Assembly (NCBI GenBank): GCA_029856125.1
Contig: JAHQWJ010000038.1
Location: forward strand, 1-44,980
Direction of reading: 5' to 3'
Source: Promethearchaeia archaeon
GTDB lineage: Archaea; Asgardarchaeota; Lokiarchaeia; Sigyniarchaeales; SOKP01
DNA: 44,980 nt
Shown here: positions 33,899 to 44,980 of the stretch, piece by piece
Layout: each line of letters starts with the position of its first letter
How positions within the stretch are numbered: position 1 is the stretch's first letter
Program-made: the position numbers and the translations under genes
The notes under the pieces: generated by a model
What the model saw: only the letters and a program-made list of their open reading frames with translations
Database searches by the model: none
What the model was told of the DNA's origin: nothing

Positions 33899-34654
33899 AT
33901 GTCTTTCAGATCGGGGTTAAAAGTGTATCGGAAAAACAAGAGCGTTCCCTTAGTTTCGAGCGGCGATTCAAAGCTGGACGCGCTATTGGGAGAGGGTGGT
34001 TTTCATAAAGACTTGGTTTATCTTCTTTATGGAGATAAAAAAAAAACTTCGAACATTTTATTGACCACTTCTGTTATTGCTCAAAAATCTTTCGCTAATG
34101 GCGGTCTTGGAGAGAAAATTAAGGTTGTGTATATTGACGCAAATAATCGCTTTAATCCATATAATGTAAGTAAATTTGCTGTTTCCCAAAATTTATCACC
34201 TCAAAAAGTGCTAGAAAACATCGTTATTGCCCGCGCGTTTACTTGGGATCAAATGGTAGAGCTTCTAGAGAATAGACTCTCCAAACTTGAACAGGTAAAA
34301 GTTGTTTTAATTTCTGGTATTACTACCTTGTTCCAGAGTTACGAAAAACAGACGTTTGAAGATTTACTAAGAGCCATAAATGGGATTAAAGCAATTCTCT
34401 CTAAAACAAGACCATTAATCGTTTTAACTGCACCTTTACACGAATTTTCTCTTTATAGGCCTAATGGCGGAAAAATTCTTTCCCACTTCGGAAGCGTATT
34501 AGTAATGATAAACGAAGACGAGCGATATACCGAATACGTTCTTGTTCAACACCCTTACTTGCCAGAAAATCGCCTTCTAAAATGGAAACCGCGCATTCCT
34601 AAAAGAAATTTGGCAAATTCCACAAAAAATATGTCAATAGATTGTTGGCTCTAA
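33899..34654 (+). CDS. RecA/RadA-fold protein with degenerate Walker motifs (PolB2-associated)
   Basis: VSSGDSKLDALLGEGG, VYIDANNRFNP, VLENIVIARAFT are RadA-like. Walker A reads YGDKKKTS and Walker B reads VLISG. Confidence 0.85.
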   Translation: MSFRSGLKVYRKNKSVPLVSSGDSKLDALLGEGGFHKDLVYLLYGDKKKTSNILLTTSVIAQKSFANGGLGEKIKVVYIDANNRFNPYNVSKFAVSQNLSPQKVLENIVIARAFTWDQMVELLENRLSKLEQVKVVLISGITTLFQSYEKQTFEDLLRAINGIKAILSKTRPLIVLTAPLHEFSLYRPNGGKILSHFGSVLVMINEDERYTEYVLVQHPYLPENRLLKWKPRIPKRNLANSTKNMSIDCWL

Positions 34655-34656
34655 CT

Positions 34657-35067
34657 CTATTCTTTCTTCTTATAGAAGTTAGTATCTTTCTCTTCAAGAG
34701 TTAAAGGATCTCCACCATACTTAACCTTTTTACCTTTATAATAAAGATCTGATTTTTCTTCACAAATTTTATCCCATTTGGAGACCCCTAATTTCTGAAT
34801 CATCAGTAAATTGTAAATCTTAGAATTATGGGGCGCAAAAATCTCGAAATTTACAATTGTTTGTAACTTTTCACATGGAAAATCATTACACTCGAAACAG
34901 AATTCGTGTCCTTTTTCAGTAATACATTGAAAAGTTTTGCACACCGGAAAGTCTAATATTTGACCCTCAAGCGTTCGGCAACCCTTACAATTATAAGCCT
35001 GAACACCTGGACACCTTTTGCAGTAAATTCCACAAGGAGCGTGCCAGTTTTTTAATTCTTCAGTCAT
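34657..35067 (-). CDS. Cys-rich DUF3795-like protein
   Basis: APCGIYCKRC, CKGC, CKTFQC, FCFECNDFPC. Confidence 0.8.
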   Translation of the reverse strand: MTEELKNWHAPCGIYCKRCPGVQAYNCKGCRTLEGQILDFPVCKTFQCITEKGHEFCFECNDFPCEKLQTIVNFEIFAPHNSKIYNLLMIQKLGVSKWDKICEEKSDLYYKGKKVKYGGDPLTLEEKDTNFYKKKE

Positions 35068-35234
35068 AAAAAAAAATGTGAAAAATCATTTAAAAACATA
35101 TTGAGAGAGAAGAAGAAGAGAAACGATTATTTGAGCTATACCAAAAAAATCAGAAAATTTCAGAGGTACTTTTCTTTAAATTTCCCTAAAGACTTACTAA
35201 CGAGATACTTGAAATAATACCGAATGTGTATAAT

Positions 35235-35507
35235 ATGGGACGGACTGTACCTGCTTTTAGACCCGCTTTAGAACACGAAATAGAGAGTTGGAAAGACTTC
35301 AAAAGAGCACTTAGGCCAGAAGATCGAACAATTTTTAATAAATTGATGAATTACGCGAGAATTCATGCTGATGCTGGTAGCTTAGGAGCTCGCCCAATGC
35401 TCTCCGAAATTCTATTTATTTCTTTTGGAATTGAACAAGAAAGGAAAATTGGGCAATTGGAGAAGAAAATCAAAGAATTAGAGGAAATTATAAAGGGAAA
35501 AGAGTAA
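35235..35507 (+). CDS. Small helical protein of the type that precedes polB2 (arCOG07300-like)
   Basis: MGRTVPAFR...WKDFKRALRPEDR.IF..L; ends 2 nt before polB2. ATG at 35235 preferred over GTG at 35226. Confidence 0.8.
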   Translation: MGRTVPAFRPALEHEIESWKDFKRALRPEDRTIFNKLMNYARIHADAGSLGARPMLSEILFISFGIEQERKIGQLEKKIKELEEIIKGKE

Positions 35508-35509
35508 AG

Positions 35510-37918
35510 TTGGATTCGCAAACGACTTTTAATGGGTGGCTTCTCGATGTATCCACGTATAGCGAAGGAGTTATCCTCTGGGTAAAAACCGCAAAAGAAC
35601 AGAAAGTAATAAGAATATACCACCAGTTCAATCCCGAATTTTTCGCTGTTCCTAAAGATGGTGTTGGTAATGACTTAAAGAGAATGCAATATATTCTTAC
35701 TCAAAATCAGAATGTAAAGAAAGTCCGTATCTGTGAAAAATATGTGAAACTAGAGGACCAAGAAAAATCGAAAGTTCTTGGTGTCACTGTTGAAAAACCG
35801 TCAGTGTTCAAGAAAACTATTAAAGAAATCAATAAAATAGGATTATTTACGCTATTTAATACGGATCTCCCAATTACTCAGATGTACTTCTATGTCAACG
35901 ACCTTTTCCCTATGTCTTTTTGCTGCTTTAAGATTAAGGTTGAAAATAGCGGCGGGAAGAACAGTAGCTTTTTGCGCCTTGTTTCTATAGATTTACAAGA
36001 CGATAATGAAGAACTTTTCTACGATTTACCTCCTCTAAGAGCCGTCTGGATAGATGTAAAAATTAATTACCAAGGAATTAAGCCATATTATAACGACCCT
36101 ATTTCCTACGCTGAGATCAGTATAGTTCAGAATGACGAAGACAATGTTCCTCGAGCAGATGGGTACAAAAAACAGAAAATAGTAATTGACAAGAGAAATG
36201 AAGCTGAAATTTTAAGGACCATCAGCAAAGTAATTGAACGCCTTAATCCTGATATTATCCTTACGCAAAATGGGGACGAATTCCTCTTCCCTTACTTGGT
36301 TGCCCGAGCTTCGGAGAATCGAATAACAAAGGAATTCTACTTATCCCGAGATAAGAAACCATTGGCAAAGTGCATCTTCGATCTTTCGGGAGGTTCAGAC
36401 CACTATATGTCCTATGGTGTCATTAGACGGCGTTCAAGAACCCAAGTGTATTTAAGTGGTAGATTTCACTTAGACACGACCACTTATGCCAGTCTTCACT
36501 TTTCTGAAGGTAATATTCCCGGAGTTATTGAAGTTGCCCGTATATCGAGAATTACACTTCAAAGATTAAGTCGTATAACCATCGGGGGAGCGCTTCAATC
36601 AATACAATATTATTACGCTTACAAGCTTGGCCATTTAATTCCTCCATTCAAGAAAAATCCTGAAGGTTTCAGCACTGGAATGGATTTAATAAAAAGCGAC
36701 CGTGGTGGTCACATCTTTGAACCAATAATTGGAGTGTTTGACCAAGTAGTAGAGCTAGATTTTTCCTCAATGTATCCTTCTTTAATGGCCACCTTTAACA
36801 TCTCATCAGAGACTATAAATTGTAAGTGCTGTAAAGACGATGGCACTGGTATAAAGGTTCCGGGATTGGATTTTCATATCTGCACAAAAAGGGAAGGTAT
36901 TATATCAAAATCTATTAGCTTACCACTCAAAAAAAGATTGAAATACAAAGCATATGTGCGCAAAACTGGAAGCGTCCGCTATAACTTCGTTGACATCGCT
37001 CTTAAATGGGTGCTTGTAGTAAGTTTTGGATATTTAGGCTTCAAAAATGCTCGATTTGGAAAGATAGAAGCACATCAGACAGTTTGTGCTTTTTCTCGCG
37101 AGTTTCTCATGCGTTCTGCTGAGATCGCTGAAGAACACGGATGTAGAATTATACATGGAATTGTCGATTCAATATGGTTAAAAGACACAAAAAATCGGAA
37201 CCCCGAAGAATTCGAAGAAATAACGAAGGATATTGCCGAAGAGATAACTAGAAGCGTAGGTATTCCAATGAGTTGGGATGGGCGCTACAATGTAATCGTT
37301 TTTCTTCCCTCATGTGCAGAACCAGACATCCCTGCGCTAAGCCATTATTGGGGGATTAAAAGCGACGGAGAAGCAAAGGTACGAGGGATAGAAGTTCGGC
37401 GTAGAGATATACCGAAGATCGTTAAAGACGCTCAATATGCCTTTATAGATGTTTTTCAAGGTGCAAAGACCACTGAAGAATTTAAGCGAAGAATCTCAAA
37501 AGCCAAGAGCGTGCTCTACCACTACATTGACAAGATAGAGACAGGTAAAGTTTCGCGAGACGAGTTGACAATACGCCAAAGAATCTCAAGAAAACCGTCG
37601 CAATATAAAGTTAACTCGTATCAAGCTGTTGCGGCAAGACAACTAGAACGATCGGGTGTTGTGGTAACTCCTGGTAAAAATGTTCGGTATATTATACTCA
37701 ATGCCGAAGCTGATCCGGAATTTCCTGAGAAGAAAGTGATTCTCTCAGATCTCTACGACGATAAAAAACATCAATACGATCAAAAGAAATATGTCGAACT
37801 GCTTAAAAGAGCTTTTGAGAGTATTTTTCCTTTCGAATTCCCTGAATTAGATGAATTAGTAAAATCAGATCTCATGAGGAAATCTAATCAGAAGAATTTA
37901 TTTAGTTTTATTGAGTAA
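35510..37918 (+). CDS. polB2: Family B DNA polymerase, PolB2/Dpo2 group
   Basis: Motif A ELDFSSMYPS, NISSETINCKCC insert, motif B KWVLVVSFGYLG, motif C HGIVDSIW, KVRGIEVRRRD. Exonuclease motifs degenerate. PIP-like C-terminus QKNLFSF. Confidence 0.93.
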   Translation: MDSQTTFNGWLLDVSTYSEGVILWVKTAKEQKVIRIYHQFNPEFFAVPKDGVGNDLKRMQYILTQNQNVKKVRICEKYVKLEDQEKSKVLGVTVEKPSVFKKTIKEINKIGLFTLFNTDLPITQMYFYVNDLFPMSFCCFKIKVENSGGKNSSFLRLVSIDLQDDNEELFYDLPPLRAVWIDVKINYQGIKPYYNDPISYAEISIVQNDEDNVPRADGYKKQKIVIDKRNEAEILRTISKVIERLNPDIILTQNGDEFLFPYLVARASENRITKEFYLSRDKKPLAKCIFDLSGGSDHYMSYGVIRRRSRTQVYLSGRFHLDTTTYASLHFSEGNIPGVIEVARISRITLQRLSRITIGGALQSIQYYYAYKLGHLIPPFKKNPEGFSTGMDLIKSDRGGHIFEPIIGVFDQVVELDFSSMYPSLMATFNISSETINCKCCKDDGTGIKVPGLDFHICTKREGIISKSISLPLKKRLKYKAYVRKTGSVRYNFVDIALKWVLVVSFGYLGFKNARFGKIEAHQTVCAFSREFLMRSAEIAEEHGCRIIHGIVDSIWLKDTKNRNPEEFEEITKDIAEEITRSVGIPMSWDGRYNVIVFLPSCAEPDIPALSHYWGIKSDGEAKVRGIEVRRRDIPKIVKDAQYAFIDVFQGAKTTEEFKRRISKAKSVLYHYIDKIETGKVSRDELTIRQRISRKPSQYKVNSYQAVAARQLERSGVVVTPGKNVRYIILNAEADPEFPEKKVILSDLYDDKKHQYDQKKYVELLKRAFESIFPFEFPELDELVKSDLMRKSNQKNLFSFIE

Positions 37919-37989
37919 ACAATCCGACTTAAAAAAAATCTAACCATAATCTAGCGACATAAATATTTAATAATCCTTTAATAATCTCA

Positions 37990-37997
37990 TTTAAATA
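37990..37997 (+). promoter_or_regulatory. Candidate TATA box for the structured RNA
   Basis: TTTAAATA about 25-30 nt before the first hairpin of the repeat region. The surrounding DNA is AT-rich, so specificity is limited. Confidence 0.4.
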
Positions 37998-38020
37998 TGA
38001 TCCGCTTAAAATATATATTA

Positions 38021-38762
38021 TTCATACCTTACGGTGTGGATATCGAGAAGTAGTATTAACTCTCAATGATATAACCAATTCGAATACCTCTGGTATAAAA
38101 AATTGGTAAAACTTTCTTTCCTTAACGGAAAGATTATATTTTCGGATATAGATTTGGTTCATTGGTTTTCGGATTAATGATTAAAAAAGTTGCTCATTGA
38201 GACATTTTATATGAAAATATAGAATGAAATACTAGCAATGAGCCTTCGGGCATATTTGCATTTTCTCATATCATGCTTGAATTCATGATCATCGGAAAAG
38301 ATATAGCAACCTCATGAGATGCTACCGAATGTTATCCTAACGGGTACACCATTTCGGTAAATCGAGCTATGCTAGCAATTTCGATTAAATCTCCGGAGTG
38401 ATTCTGACAGGAGGTTTTACAACCAATTGTTTGAATGCATTGAATGAGGACTTTCCTTACATCGTAAGGAATGGCAATATCTCGCAACAAATTCCTCCGG
38501 GGATTTAATTGCTTATTCCTTCGGGTCATGCCTGATTGTGTGATTATAGGAAAAGGTATCGCAATCAATGTCATGCTACCAATTGAAATACTTAACGGTA
38601 TTGAAATTGGAAAAACATACTTCTTTGGAAGTGTGAATATATCTTCAGATAAGGATTAAACGATTAGTTTCCGAACTTATTGAATGATCTTGTATAACAT
38701 TGACACAATACCACGCAAAAACCCTTCGGGTACTCATTGCAACTTCTTGAACCTTTTTTTTT
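38021..38762 (+). ncRNA. Putative large structured RNA made of three tandem ~250-nt units (unknown family)
   Basis: Units at about 38021-38268, 38270-38519 and 38525-38749 share motif order and helices with compensatory changes. Multiple UNCG and GNRA tetraloops and G-U pairs on the + strand. Ends in T9. Confidence 0.8.
38754..38762 (+). terminator. Poly-T archaeal terminator candidate
   Basis: T9 tract just after the last helix of unit 3. Confidence 0.45.
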
Positions 38763-38836
38763 GAAACGAATAAACAATTACAAGTTCTATTACTTAGCCT
38801 TGTTAATTTGCAAAAAAAAAGATTATGAAAAATTAA

Positions 38837-39460
38837 TTATTTAAAAGGTTGTCTTATAACAGTTTTCATAGTTGCAGGATTAGCTTTTCTTGGATCACTT
38901 AAATAGATTTCATGGTGTTTGGTTTTCAATCCGTCAAGCTTGCCTCCTTCTTTCTGAACGAAATCATGCACTTTTTGAACGGTTGGTCCTTCTTCCGAAT
39001 AAGGACCTACATGCATAATTTGAGCCGCTTTACCTTCTTTATATTTTTCAAGTCTAAGTTTAGGAAGCAATTCTGAAAGTTCAGGCTTCTTCTTTTTAGT
39101 TATTGATATTGCTTCATTTATCATATCTTGAGTAATCCAATCTGGTTGCATTATCATCATAGTCCATTTCCACTTATCACGATTTCCGTCTATGAAATCT
39201 TCCATGTTGTCAGCCCACCATAGTCCTTCTAAAGGAGGAACGACGTAATCTTTCCCTATTGCCTTACTTAAGAATTTTGTTTTGAAAGCGATAGGATAGA
39301 GTACTGCTAGAGCGTCTTGATACTCTTTCGAATCGCCTGGTGATCCCATTCCATCAATCATCAAGAACTGCATTTCTGGTACATCTATTAGGACTACTTC
39401 CTTTGGACTTGGTTGGTAAATTTCCTTCATAGATTTCTTGAAATCTATTTTAATCGGCAT
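38837..39460 (-). CDS. GyrI-like small-molecule-binding domain protein
   Basis: QFLMIDGMGSP, YVVPPLEGLWW, WKWTMMIMQP, QIMHVGPYSEE, HHEIYLSDPR, KTVIRQP. Confidence 0.9.
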   Translation of the reverse strand: MPIKIDFKKSMKEIYQPSPKEVVLIDVPEMQFLMIDGMGSPGDSKEYQDALAVLYPIAFKTKFLSKAIGKDYVVPPLEGLWWADNMEDFIDGNRDKWKWTMMIMQPDWITQDMINEAISITKKKKPELSELLPKLRLEKYKEGKAAQIMHVGPYSEEGPTVQKVHDFVQKEGGKLDGLKTKHHEIYLSDPRKANPATMKTVIRQPFK

Positions 39461-39515: not shown

Positions 39516-40070
39516 TTAGAGAATATAAGGAATCAGAAAGAAGTCTAAAAAGATTGCTACTAAACATATAAATTCCATTATAACCCATAAATTTCTTTTT
39601 ATGCTCCTTAATCCTTTAAAAGATTTCCCTGAATAACTAATTGTATTGTAAATTATAATCATTATCCATGCAACTACCAAAAAAACGATAGGGAGTAATA
39701 GTGCGTATAATAGATGTCCGATAAAGTCTAATAAGTACACGTACCCTAAGATTGAAAATGCGATTATAACTAAAGTAAAACCCATACCAAATGTATATTC
39801 TGCGAAGCTCACGAATCTATTTACTTTGATTTCATCAAAATCTTCTAATTTTAACTCAAACGCCGCCCTTGAATTTGCAGAAACAGAGTTTACAAACAAA
39901 ATAAACGAGACCATTAATAAGAAAGTAACAGTAACAATTCCTCTTGTTGGAGGTACTTGCCAAATTAACGCTAGAATAGTTAGAGTCGCAGCAATCATGG
40001 TAGTACTAAGAACTATCCAATCCCTTACATTTAAAATAGTGTTTTGGCTATTTTCTTCCATCTTACTCAA
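39516..40070 (-). CDS. Hypothetical membrane protein (about 5 TM)
   Basis: Five hydrophobic segments in 184 aa. Confidence 0.75.
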   Translation of the reverse strand: MSKMEENSQNTILNVRDWIVLSTTMIAATLTILALIWQVPPTRGIVTVTFLLMVSFILFVNSVSANSRAAFELKLEDFDEIKVNRFVSFAEYTFGMGFTLVIIAFSILGYVYLLDFIGHLLYALLLPIVFLVVAWIMIIIYNTISYSGKSFKGLRSIKRNLWVIMEFICLVAIFLDFFLIPYIL

Positions 40071-40258: not shown

Positions 40259-41218
40259 ATGGAAATAATAAATGAAAAAGATAGAAAAAAATTGATTTTA
40301 GAATCACAAAAATATGGAGGTATAAGCCTACGGCGTCAAAAGTTAAGGGTGCATAAGAATGGGGCAAAATTTCCTATTAGCAAAGCATATATTGATGACG
40401 AACTCTTAGATCCGGAAATTTCCTACACTCTAATTTTGATACCTGAAGTCAAAATCGCTGACCAAACTATAGTCTCACTAACTTTTTTTAAAAGAAGGAG
40501 CGGCCCTCTTATCTACTATTATTATCCTGAGAATTCTTTAAATGCGACAGAAAAGGCTAGTATAATGGATATTATGGTTCAAGTATCTAATGAAAAATAC
40601 TTTATTCACCAATCGAGTAATCTATCTTCATTAAATTATTATTTTGAAATTCACTCTGATTGGGCTCGTGGGAAGAAGGAGATGTTAATGATTAGTGTTA
40701 TCCTCAATACGAAAATCACTAAATCAATTGAAGACATAATTCTTTCGATTTGTATCGATTTTGAAACCGATTTAACATCTATCAAAGATATCTACAAAGC
40801 ATTATATGATAAAGATTTAGACTCATTTTCCGATGAAGAACAATCGGATATAGAAAAAATCAGTAGAATTCTGCGTACGAAAATAAAAGAATTACTTAAA
40901 AAAATAAGAAAATTAGACAGTCAAAAGTTTACTAAGGTTATATTCAGAGGTTCAATGGAAATTGAAAAGAAATTAGACCTAACTGAAATTGCTCAAGGAA
41001 TTCAAGATGCTGAGTTCAATCCAGAGAAGTTTCCGGGGTTAATTATGAAAATTGAGAAACCAAACGCTACAATTCTTATGTTTTCTGATGGTAAATTGAT
41101 GATAACCGATTTGGAAAATCCATCCAAAGTTGATCAAGTGGTTGATATTATTATGGAAAAACTTAAGAACATAGGTATTATAATACCTAAACCAGAAATT
41201 ACAATAGAAAGTACATAA
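40259..41218 (+). CDS. Fusion protein: AbrB-like N-terminus (tentative), uDENN/longin-like middle (tentative), single TBP repeat at the C-terminus
   Basis: C-terminal LDLTEIA...AEFNPEKFPGLIMKIEKPNATILMFSDGKLMIT is one TBP repeat. Middle has LTFFKRRSGPLIYYYYP...NYYFEIHSDWARG. GGTGA ribosome-binding site upstream. Confidence 0.8.
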   Translation: MEIINEKDRKKLILESQKYGGISLRRQKLRVHKNGAKFPISKAYIDDELLDPEISYTLILIPEVKIADQTIVSLTFFKRRSGPLIYYYYPENSLNATEKASIMDIMVQVSNEKYFIHQSSNLSSLNYYFEIHSDWARGKKEMLMISVILNTKITKSIEDIILSICIDFETDLTSIKDIYKALYDKDLDSFSDEEQSDIEKISRILRTKIKELLKKIRKLDSQKFTKVIFRGSMEIEKKLDLTEIAQGIQDAEFNPEKFPGLIMKIEKPNATILMFSDGKLMITDLENPSKVDQVVDIIMEKLKNIGIIIPKPEITIEST

Positions 41219-41893: not shown

Positions 41894-44800
41894 TTATGTA
41901 ACAATCTCAGTGAAGTATAAAACAACAAGTAATACCACCCAAATAATCGTTAGAGTTATTAACAGTATCGTAGTATAAAACCTCCACTTTATTGAAATCT
42001 TCTGTTTTTTTTCAATTCTGTAAATATATATTGCAAGTATTGCTCCTAATATAATTATTGAAGATATTATCAGAATTATTCCAAAAATAATTGAAGTTAT
42101 ATATGGTAATATCAAAGCAAATACGAATACGGTAAAACTTATCCAAAGTGTGATAAAACGCTGCATTCTTTGTTTAAAAACTTGATCTAGGTCATCTGTT
42201 TTCTTGGTTGGGAGCAAAGAGATTAAAATTCCTGAAGTCGCTAGACCTGAGAGAGCCGCGTGATCCCATCTTAACAAACCTAAAACAATGTTGGAGAAGA
42301 GCTCTCCTACTAATATACCTGCAATCAAGCAAAAAATAATTCCTATTATTTTAAAGTGCTTTTTTAAGAAATTGAGAGTAGAATAATAGAAACTTAGAAG
42401 GAAATTTTTGAGTTTAATAAGAGCAAATCGTAAATTATCTATAATATTATCTAAGAATCTTTTCAATTCTTCTAGCATAAAAATAAACAAGTATAACATC
42501 GCCCCTACTAATATCCAAGAGAAACTCCATCCATTTGAAGTTAAATTAAGAGTAATTAAGCTTAGTAGCAAGAACATTAATACAGAATATAAGAAGGAAA
42601 GGAATTTGCTGCGTTTAAAAGGTTTGAATAGAGCTAAATTTATTATCATAAAAATGAATAGAGATAGGCACAAGTTTAAAATTAGATTCGGATTAATAAT
42701 AAATTCTAATGTAATAAAAATATCTAATGATAGAAGAGTTTCAATAAAGATAAAACTGGAAATCCTGAGTAAATTTCTTGTCTTATCACTTACAACTTTA
42801 ATATATTTGTCAACGAAGGTTAAAATTAGTAAGATAATAAACGATAGTATCAATAAGTTAAACGAAATATAATAATCTGGATTAATATAATATAAAGGCC
42901 ATGTGATTAAATCTAAGTAGACGATTAGAATTAGACCTTTATTAATCCTTGATGTGTTGGAACTGATAAAATCCCATTCTGATATTAACCGAGATAAGTA
43001 TGCGATTTGTATTATGAAAAGTATTATAGTGATAGGTATTAGATGTGGGAAAAACAATGAAATCCAATCAATGTAGAATAAGATCGAGAAACCTATCATA
43101 ACGATCCACGAAGTGATGATAAAAAACTTCGAGGTTTTCTTTAAAAACTTTAACAAAAACTTATCTAACAAACCAAACAAATGGGTTAGAATACTTAAAA
43201 TCAAAATAGCTATATGGATTTCTACAAATGGGGTCAACGAATTAAAGATGCTGACTATTAGAAAAACATATAAACCTATCCCTAAGTAATTCTGCCTATT
43301 AGTTTTCCATTTTCCAAACATTTCAAGCTTTTCAGGATTCAATTTACTCCTAATATTGAAATACGAGATGTTAGTGTAGAATTGCAGTGATAAAAATATC
43401 AAAATTATATAGAAAAATGAAGTTATTGAAAAACCATATAAATAAATTAAAATCAGAGAAAGAACCCAAGAGCTATTAAAAAAACTTAAACAGTGGACAA
43501 TATCCATATACCCTGCTTTTAAACGCTTTATACCGTAAATTTCTAATATGCTGATTAAGAATAGAATAATCTGAGAAAATAGCAGACTTTCGAAAAATCC
43601 AAAAAATAATCCAAAGAGTCCGAGAAACACGAATGAAGTCTCTAAGTAAACGATAAATACTAAACCTGAATAGATTTTCTTTGTCTTTATAACCCATTCC
43701 TCGCTTTTTATAACACCTTTCGATAAGTATATTGTATAAGCGGTTAGTATAGTTTCAGACAGAATAACTAAAGTAATTCTTAAAAAGTCGAGTATTGAGA
43801 ATGTTCCAAAAAGAGAGAACCAGAAAATGCCAAAAAACATTTGGAACGCTATGAAAGTAGAGAATAGTATAATGTTCTTATATTTAATTTCGATAGTGCG
43901 ATTTAAAAAACCATTTAATAGGAACATTAGCAATGAAAAGACAGAAAGAAAGAAACTCAATGAAGGAATTCCAATTAGTAATGGGTTGTAGGCTAGTAAA
44001 AAGTCAGTCAATAATAGAGAAAGGTAAAAACTAATCACCAGAAAGATAATATTCAGTAGAATTGCTTGCAATTGATTTCTAATTTCCTTTATTCTACTAG
44101 CATCGTATTTAGTTATTCCCTCGATATAGTAAGATAGGTAATATAATGTATAGAACTGTAATATCAAAAATATTACTAAATTTAAAACAAATAATGTTGC
44201 ATCATTTCCTGTAAATTGGGCAAAGTAAATTAATCCACCAATCGTAATTACAAGAAATGCTATGATATTTAACAAATAGGTGATCTTTTCTATAGTTCTT
44301 TTTAAAACATGGATGTCTAATAAAGTAGAGAGGAAAAATATGAAAACGGATAACAATATAGCTCCATAAAAGTAAAGGCTAATATCTATTAACTCCTGAA
44401 TCAATCCAAAACTCAACAAGCCAAGTTCAAAATGCGATAATAGCGACAGAATTGAATCAAATTTCTTCATACCGTAATCCTTTTCAGGCATTTGCTCTTC
44501 GATTTTCTTCACAAATACTACTCTTGATACCGAAAAATAAGCAGAGTAAATTAAAAGTGAAAGTAAAACTATGAAATAGAGAAATTGTATGATGTGGAGA
44601 GATTGAAATAATTCTATCAATACTATAAATTGTAAAGTTAATAATGTTAATGCTAGAGGAGATATATACCGTACAATAAAACGGTATTCATATAATGCTG
44701 GCATAATAATAATTAAATTTACAAATACGAATATCGCAGACGCTAAAAAGATAAATTCTGGCAGGAAAATATAAACTAAAAATGATAAGGTAAGCGATGT

Positions 44801-44980
44801 TCCTATCGATAAAATTGAAAGCGGAAATATTTTTTTAAGAGGTAAAATCATTCGAAATTTGTTAAATACAAGAGTTGACCCGCCAAAAACCGTAATTGCT
44901 AAAGATATAGCGATGAACTCGATATTAGGAATCAATATAAATGTGTTGTAGGTAAATAAGGAGAAATTTACAACTAAAAT
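41894..44980 (-). CDS. Very large polytopic membrane protein, 5' truncated by the window edge
   Basis: Frame stays open to 44980 (ILVVNFSLFTYNTFILIP…). More than 1000 aa of near-continuous TM helices with basic loops; no family recognised. Confidence 0.8.
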   Translation of the reverse strand: MLVVNFSLFTYNTFILIPNIEFIAISLAITVFGGSTLVFNKFRMILPLKKIFPLSILSIGTSLTLSFLVYIFLPEFIFLASAIFVFVNLIIIMPALYEYRFIVRYISPLALTLLTLQFIVLIELFQSLHIIQFLYFIVLLSLLIYSAYFSVSRVVFVKKIEEQMPEKDYGMKKFDSILSLLSHFELGLLSFGLIQELIDISLYFYGAILLSVFIFFLSTLLDIHVLKRTIEKITYLLNIIAFLVITIGGLIYFAQFTGNDATLFVLNLVIFLILQFYTLYYLSYYIEGITKYDASRIKEIRNQLQAILLNIIFLVISFYLSLLLTDFLLAYNPLLIGIPSLSFFLSVFSLLMFLLNGFLNRTIEIKYKNIILFSTFIAFQMFFGIFWFSLFGTFSILDFLRITLVILSETILTAYTIYLSKGVIKSEEWVIKTKKIYSGLVFIVYLETSFVFLGLFGLFFGFFESLLFSQIILFLISILEIYGIKRLKAGYMDIVHCLSFFNSSWVLSLILIYLYGFSITSFFYIILIFLSLQFYTNISYFNIRSKLNPEKLEMFGKWKTNRQNYLGIGLYVFLIVSIFNSLTPFVEIHIAILILSILTHLFGLLDKFLLKFLKKTSKFFIITSWIVMIGFSILFYIDWISLFFPHLIPITIILFIIQIAYLSRLISEWDFISSNTSRINKGLILIVYLDLITWPLYYINPDYYISFNLLILSFIILLILTFVDKYIKVVSDKTRNLLRISSFIFIETLLSLDIFITLEFIINPNLILNLCLSLFIFMIINLALFKPFKRSKFLSFLYSVLMFLLLSLITLNLTSNGWSFSWILVGAMLYLFIFMLEELKRFLDNIIDNLRFALIKLKNFLLSFYYSTLNFLKKHFKIIGIIFCLIAGILVGELFSNIVLGLLRWDHAALSGLATSGILISLLPTKKTDDLDQVFKQRMQRFITLWISFTVFVFALILPYITSIIFGIILIISSIIILGAILAIYIYRIEKKQKISIKWRFYTTILLITLTIIWVVLLVVLYFTEIVT

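Follow-up and report, generated by a model that had tools for sequence, protein, structure and literature searches.

A stand-alone gene for a large structured RNA in one family of Lokiarchaeia

The raiA RNA has a conserved closing helix P1, a variable periphery and protein partners (PMC12968392). The ROOL, GOLLD and OLE RNAs assemble without protein, and ROOL is reported to be abundant yet non-essential (bioRxiv 10.1101/2024.12.08.627333). By behaviour only, these four are the nearest analogues of the RNA described here, referred to below as the Loki RNA. It resembles raiA in monomer size, in its closing P1, in having subtypes that differ in their peripheral stems and in being without an assigned function, while its abundance is only hinted at. 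It differs in that raiA has two pseudoknots (PK1 and PK2) around P3/P4, of which no counterpart was found, and in that it has no Rfam match, carries an archaeal TATA promoter and grows by nesting whole copies. With OLE, ROOL and GOLLD it shares a large, multibranched form and an unclear function, and its 660–730-nt forms fall within their size range; it shows, however, no sequence or model match to them, no detected pseudoknots or kissing loops and no linked partner gene. ROOL and GOLLD belong to phages or prophages and lie near tRNA genes, whereas the neighbours of the Loki RNA are chromosomal and no viral contig matches it.

Other described systems share single features with it. Type III toxin-antitoxin RNA arrays (ToxI, CptI, TenpI) consist of tandem structured units with one promoter and one terminator. 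The Loki units, in contrast, are ~250 nt long and divergent, have no toxin gene after them and are predicted to fold in a nested manner; this candidate was rejected, the downstream gene being variable and mostly convergent and not a same-strand toxin. Alu and B2 RNAs, which have a promoter of their own and end in a U-tract, are modular RNAs that lengthened by duplication of a unit. The Loki RNA is unlike SRP RNA or tRNA, is single copy and sits in a genome without reverse transcriptase, and binding of RNA polymerase by it would be pure analogy.

Archaeal SRP and RNase P RNAs are likewise stand-alone, 250–350 nt long and closed by a 5'-3' helix, but both are encoded elsewhere in the host genome and the Loki RNA is patchy in its distribution. 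The helix 8 motif of SRP RNA and the P4 consensus of RNase P RNA each occur in 0 of 70 sequences; contig C126 carries an SRP-like match that falls short of the cut-off, and RNase P RNA sits on C137. The SRP-like match (C126:190148-190383, minus strand) spans model positions 67–307 only, its Alu part being divergent or missing.

The window analysed is a stretch of 44,980 nt from a Lokiarchaeia (Promethearchaeia) genome, placed by its PolB2 relatives. Between the stop of polB2 (37918) and a convergent GyrI-like gene (38837) lies a gap of 917 bases containing three homologous units, at 38020–38268, 38269–38524 and 38525–38753, with a mean column identity of 71%. BLAST and a covariance model found no further copies of the units in the host genome. 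The features of the locus are as follows.

33899–34654: iRadA, Rad51/RecA match; same module as polB2
35226–35507: small gene of the iRadA-PPB2-PolB2 module, between iRadA and polB2
35510–37918, plus strand: polB2, Pfam DNA_pol_B and exonuclease; third gene of the iRadA-PPB2-PolB2 module; context only
37925–37962, plus strand: two CGAC + A/T-tract boxes, 30 nt apart (37925, 37955); doublet found only here in the genome
37968–37984, plus strand: upstream promoter element TAATAA-N4-TTAAYAR, conserved across 48 aligned promoters
37990–37997, plus strand: TATA box, 22 nt 5' of the predicted start; six of eight positions invariant in 35 homologues
38020–38753, plus strand: RNA gene, ~734 nt, predicted single transcript
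38020–38041, plus strand: P0, the 5' hairpin; missing, single or doubled among homologues
38043–38051, plus strand: P1 5' strand, partner 38742–38750 (3' end of unit 3); GAGAAG invariant in 35 homologues
38052–38233, plus strand: unit 1 body, with P2 (38052–57/38228–33), P3 (38061–69/38194–202) and side hairpin P8 (38203–226)
38074–107, 38115–133, 38135–150 and 38153–185, plus strand: four apical hairpins of unit 1
38235–38242, plus strand: P9 5' strand, partner 38733–38740; units 2 and 3 in the P9 loop
38269–38524, plus strand: unit 2; keeps P0, P2, P3, P4, P8 and P9; own clade across species
38369–38376, plus strand: conserved self-complementary octamer of unit 2
38525–38753, plus strand: unit 3, without P8; own clade; its 3' end closes the whole RNA
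38754–38762, plus strand: predicted U-tract terminator (T9); pyrimidine/U tract after P1 in homologues
38837–39460, minus strand: GyrI-like gene, convergent to the RNA gene; context only

Much of this was already in the first-pass annotation. Its unit starts at 38022, 38271 and 38526 are borne out, as are the TATA box at 37990 and the T9 at 38754. The arms that it assigned to P0, P2, P3, P4 and the last hairpin are present, and P0, P2, P3 and P4 recur in the predicted folds.

The stretch folds better than dinucleotide-shuffled controls, with a z of -7.8 for the whole and -6.0, -4.2 and -3.7 for units 1, 2 and 3. The plus strand, to which the RNA had been assigned, is 35 kcal/mol better than the minus strand (-215.6 against -180.1 kcal/mol). 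Two-sided changes occur at 65 of 93 pairs in the model-fitted alignment and at 53 of 93 in a plain MAFFT alignment; none of 500 shuffles scored as high, and slid controls were about 40% paired. Because relatedness inflates covariation counts, substitutions were mapped on trees, which gave 57, 36 and 52 cases in which a double change within a single branch preserved the pair, where the null means were 3.6, 2.7 and 3.3 and the maxima 10–12, so that the compensating changes noted at first hold. Paired columns are also less variable than unpaired ones in each of the three trimer units. There is almost certainly a real RNA gene here.

No conserved open reading frame is present, the longest frames varying in place and length. 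A small-protein mRNA was rejected as well: an antisense frame of 80 codons is interrupted in several of the trimers and missing from monomers.

As first reported, the RNA matches no known family. A search of Rfam 15 returned chance matches only (best E 0.98 to 9.7, all below cut-off), and the same search on seven homologous loci covering all size types returned one. The RNA is a new class that fails every family test, and the claim concerns the class and not a mechanism; in how it behaves, it may turn out to be another RNA of the raiA/OLE kind. No description of a large orphan structured RNA in Asgard archaea was found in the literature, of which subscription papers were mostly outside reach. 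Since no prokaryotes are closer to eukaryotes than Asgard archaea, the stand-alone RNAs of this group bear on how the scaffold and decoy RNAs of eukaryotes arose.

The gene carries its own promoter. The TATA box lies 22 nt before the first P0 base in 48 homologues, and its combination with TAATAA-N4-TTAAYAR is unique in the host genome; a regulon search there with the upstream element gave best matches inside genes. In two homologues (L092 and L093) the element is displaced by +11 nt, one helical turn. It is probably a helically phased activator site, which would account for the shift. Two CGAC boxes also stand upstream of the RNA in the polB2-linked copies.

A single CGAC + A/T-tract box is a common intergenic motif of the host genome. 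There, 38 of 159 sites are intergenic, compared with 8–9% for two control words in a genome that is 13.5% intergenic, and the motif is a candidate general regulatory motif of Loki archaea.

The gene downstream of the RNA varies among homologues and is mostly convergent. With its own promoter and U-tract, the RNA is a stand-alone non-coding RNA, as the first-pass annotation had it, and not a 5' leader. A riboswitch was rejected on the same ground, no same-strand regulated gene lying 3' of the RNA.

The family was collected by BLAST and then with a covariance model built from 17 units, the kind of search that had been proposed at the outset. By the model, 59 of 135 genomes in the host's Lokiarchaeia family carry the RNA, spread over three of its 13 genera (21 of 42, 37 of 54 and 1 of 6 genomes), as do 0 of 24 genomes from the other families searched in the class. 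With a model of the promoter and 5' end, no credible match came from 77 genomes, among which several are 100% complete, and five of five controls were recovered; one of the 77, G118, carries a copy whose 5' end is off the contig. Other Asgard classes were covered by the promoter pattern only, and absence there is weakly tested: across 400 genomes of the phylum the pattern was noisy, and of 30 loci inspected only the one already known preceded the RNA. Sixteen metagenome contigs contain a family motif, 15 of them with strong model scores, and neither of two pattern scans of viral contigs yielded a contig that the model matched. The presence in 59 of 135 genomes, the lack of hits in other families and the absence from several 100% complete genomes make the RNA narrow in range, common within that range and dispensable.

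The members fall into monomers of ~260, ~345, ~372 and ~660 nt and trimers of ~730 nt, usually with one intact locus per genome. They share a trunk of P0, the closing P1, a three-way junction P1/P2/P9 and then P3 with its side hairpin P8. The invariant bases, nearly all of them paired, lie in P0, in P1 and at the junction ends of P2 and P9. The heads on P3 are exchangeable: the ~260-nt type bears four hairpins, the ~345- and ~372-nt types a five-hairpin junction, the ~660-nt form both kinds of head plus more, and a 192-nt unit two hairpins. The family thus forms a natural series from about 190 to 730 nt on one trunk (monomer, insertion, nested triplication and collapse to a monomer), whose structure and oligomeric state lend themselves to direct tests in vitro.

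The explanation that best fits these properties is a stand-alone gene for a structured RNA that acts in trans as a scaffold or decoy, a reading with about an even chance of being right; that it does so within a protein complex is about as probable or slightly less so. Like raiA or OLE, the RNA would be a structural one, abundant and dispensable, with the invariant P1/P2/P9 junction recognised by a host protein and the multiplied heads adding binding sites or packing surfaces, that is, multivalency. Where the junction is invariant and fully paired and the peripheral domains are free, protein recognition or a fixed packing of helices fits better than catalysis. Neighbourhoods of the homologous loci yielded no candidate partner protein, no gene there travelling with the RNA.

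A less probable alternative is an RNA-only particle, in which monomers would oligomerise without protein and the trimer would be a covalently linked version with swapped P1 strands. ROOL, GOLLD and OLE provide the precedent (bioRxiv 10.1101/2024.12.08.627333). The tandem copies have been retained and have diverged in a fixed order, each P1 3' strand is able to pair with the 5' strand of another copy, and the predicted folds hold many stable tetraloops in addition to the self-complementary octamer of unit 2. Mutual information in 35 long-type sequences, however, gave a relatedness signal only, with no loop-loop or pseudoknot covariation. Moreover, the heads differ freely among subtypes, ROOL and GOLLD far exceed the monomer in size, and no member was found in viral contigs.

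A pseudoknot pairing of the P0 loop is possible in only 12 of 54 sequences and not in the copy of the window. One long-type subclade (comparison of L109 with L082 and its kin) shows complementarity between the P0 loop and the P2-P9 linker, along with a single double change that fits the pairing.

It is also conceivable, at somewhat lower probability, that the Loki RNA is an Asgard counterpart of 6S, 7SK or Alu/B2 RNA, or else an RNA-only particle. By this analogy a very abundant, modular RNA of slow-growing sediment cells would sequester one of the core machines of information processing, be it RNA polymerase, a basal factor or the ribosome. Nesting of its own copies, with P1 strands swapped between them, would raise its valency.

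The three units of the window had been read as tandem and self-closed, possibly as an array processed into three RNAs. A precursor array cut in this way, as in type III antitoxin arrays, is a rather improbable reading. Fourteen close trimers, 83–97% identical to that of the window, and one distant trimer (G127) are available. Units 1, 2 and 3 form one clade each across species, with support of 95–99, and the triplication is therefore old and all copies have been maintained. The trees strongly suggest that the trimer arose once, by tandem duplication, with all three copies kept.

In partition functions of all 14 close trimers, 38043–50 pairs with 38743–50 and 38235–42 with 38733–40; these nested helices have about 8.5 and 6–9 pairs, and the tandem P1 has none. 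Across 13 distinct trimers the nested P1 is paired in 103 of 104 cells and P9 in 104 of 104, with one G-C to A-U double change in P9, so that support for the nested helices is mainly invariance with one clear double change. The tandem alternatives are paired in 82 of 104 cells for P1 of unit 1 and in 63 and 68 of 104 for P9, while unit 3 offers a G-U-rich six-pair helix (72 of 78). The outer P1 and P9 strands keep the family consensus and the inner strands have drifted. The local P1 and last-hairpin pairing first proposed can be drawn in units 1 and 3 and is outcompeted in the predicted full-length fold by long-range pairings between the two units.

The monomer of genome G097 equals unit 1 joined at the P9 loop to the 3' end of unit 3, and the 372-nt type likewise expands at the P9 loop. 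Together with the nested pairing, these forms point to one canonical junction with units 2 and 3 in the P9 loop, and conservation favours one nested fold over three self-closed units. The predicted folds thus make a single nested transcript, one molecule of ~734 nt, the probable form. The free full-length fold is always lower in energy than the units folded apart, and local pairs may be favoured while the RNA is being transcribed. In the distant trimer G127 the nested and tandem folds are both well paired and 8 kcal/mol apart, and the inner pairings, of the unit 1 tail with the head of unit 3 or unit 2, differ among homologues.

Transcription was followed in sequencing runs, 13 of which are on record as RNA and contain the stretch. 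Contigs from four runs of four studies span the region from 38020 to about 38720 and bridge both junctions, and one 501-nt contig (38221–38723) crosses both by itself; the runs were chosen for containing the stretch, and the contigs give no strand, ends or level and may join separate molecules. Summed contig depth in the four runs ranges from tens to tens of thousands over the RNA, compared with 0–10 over polB2 and the GyrI-like gene, although contigs cannot rank genes. Transcription of the trimer in sediments is strongly suggested. In run X7 a contig joins the end of unit 3 (38753) back to its start (38522), which could mean that a relative has a fourth unit, that the molecule is circular or that the assembly is at fault.

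For the precursor array it can be said that every unit starts with its own P0 and folds well alone, that relatives have monomers, that the tandem helices of G127 are well paired and that the X7 contig makes the join just described. Against it, the strands that would form tandem P1 and P9 helices in units 1 and 3 have drifted while the nested partners are invariant, contigs in four of four RNA libraries cross at least one junction, contrary to cutting into three equal RNAs, and no nuclease or toxin gene co-travels.

That the RNA is a mobile or selfish element, or the orphaned scaffold of a guide (TnpB omegaRNA, bridge RNA, retron or retrozyme), is more doubtful still. The RNA gene adjoins polB2 in 26 genomes, lies elsewhere, at several unrelated sites, in 32 and is unplaced in one. 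Its presence beside polB2 requires at least 5–6 changes (PolB2 tree, 46 proteins), and empty sites exist (L035, L059, and a joint of 37919 to 38837 in RNA run X7). Such scattered sites, the patchy presence, the decayed second copies and a trimer 97% identical in another genus would suit a mobile element. On the other hand, one intact locus per genome is the rule, and no terminal repeats, target duplications or variable spacer were seen. The host genome has no reverse transcriptase, and its sole TnpB locus is on another contig and unmatched by the models.

Two genomes hold an intact copy and a decayed second one with an eroded promoter, which suggests that one working locus is retained and that the types replace each other. 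At locus L017:898-1751 (G067) the complete gene occurs twice in tandem, and both copies have a promoter of their own and a doubled P0, in contrast to the single-promoter trimer. The trimer of the other genus, L002 (G046:C86:2839-3590), lies away from polB2; G046 also has a monomer beside polB2, and the L002 trimer there is a recent transfer or a mis-binned contig.

A new ribozyme or ligand-binding RNA, which had also been considered, is very unlikely. The size and branching resemble large ribozymes, the junction has a conserved unpaired A and the long type has conserved internal-loop bases. The invariant bases are, however, almost all Watson-Crick paired; there is no family-wide pseudoknot, no known catalytic core and no downstream gene to regulate.

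Several specific classes were rejected separately. Hammerhead and other small self-cleaving ribozymes and retrozymes appear excluded (CUGANGA in 4 of 70 sequences and no Rfam match), and retron or DRT RNAs have no RVT_1 match in the host genome. For a TnpB omegaRNA or IS200-IS605 remnant, the single TnpB is on C140, where no model or BLAST match was found, and the Loki RNA ends in P1 and a U-tract. Y RNA was set aside on the lack of a TROVE (Ro60) match in the 99% complete host genome. Among guide RNAs, the C box of the C/D type occurs in 5 of 70 sequences and CUGA in 34 of 70, position ignored, and H/ACA features are absent as judged by eye only. No BLAST likeness exists to the 16S rRNA gene present; the 23S gene is not in the assembly.

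The location downstream of polB2 and the multimeric form, both part of the initial description, are true of this locus; the family is mostly monomeric, triplication being the form of one lineage, and the polB2 side is one of several sites. Adjacency in only 26 of the 58 placed genomes indicates that the RNA is not a leader and makes a PolB2 cofactor unlikely. Least probable of all is a role for the RNA in the PolB2 mutasome, as its cofactor or template, or as a damage-induced partner: the RNA lies 100–150 nt behind polB2 on the same strand in most of the 26 genomes, but 32 of 58 carry it elsewhere, most polB2 loci, close relatives included, are without it, it has its own promoter, and other genes sometimes intervene, both sides of the module being cargo hot spots.

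The iRadA-PPB2-PolB2 module has already been described (PMC11791011). The module (window 33899–37918; loci L031–L077) is interrupted by 0.4–4.5 kb of variable cargo, which nearly always includes a DUF3795 gene on the opposite strand. A regular polB2 neighbour is the 184-aa reading frame at 39516–40070 (minus strand), with no Pfam or NCBIfam match. Further along the window, a 319-aa protein at 40259–41218 (plus strand), syntenic in L059 and L065, has a single C-terminal TBP-like domain and an N-terminal part without assignment, and a 1013-aa frame at 41894–44935 (minus strand) has no Pfam or NCBIfam match.

The host genome may hold several orphan large RNAs. The best-folding intergenic stretch in a quick scan is C136:64103-64835 (minus strand; residual z -5.1), which contains two tandem near-copies of a ~110-nt hairpin unit, with a U-tract after each, and is unmatched by family models. 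Multibranched intergenic folds occur at C126:305937-306458 (minus strand), which starts just after a CGAC box, and at C68:30366-30726 (plus strand). Two more stretches, C143:67679-68136 and C25:45805-46220, form closed folds of ~420–460 nt without the promoter element of the Loki RNA.
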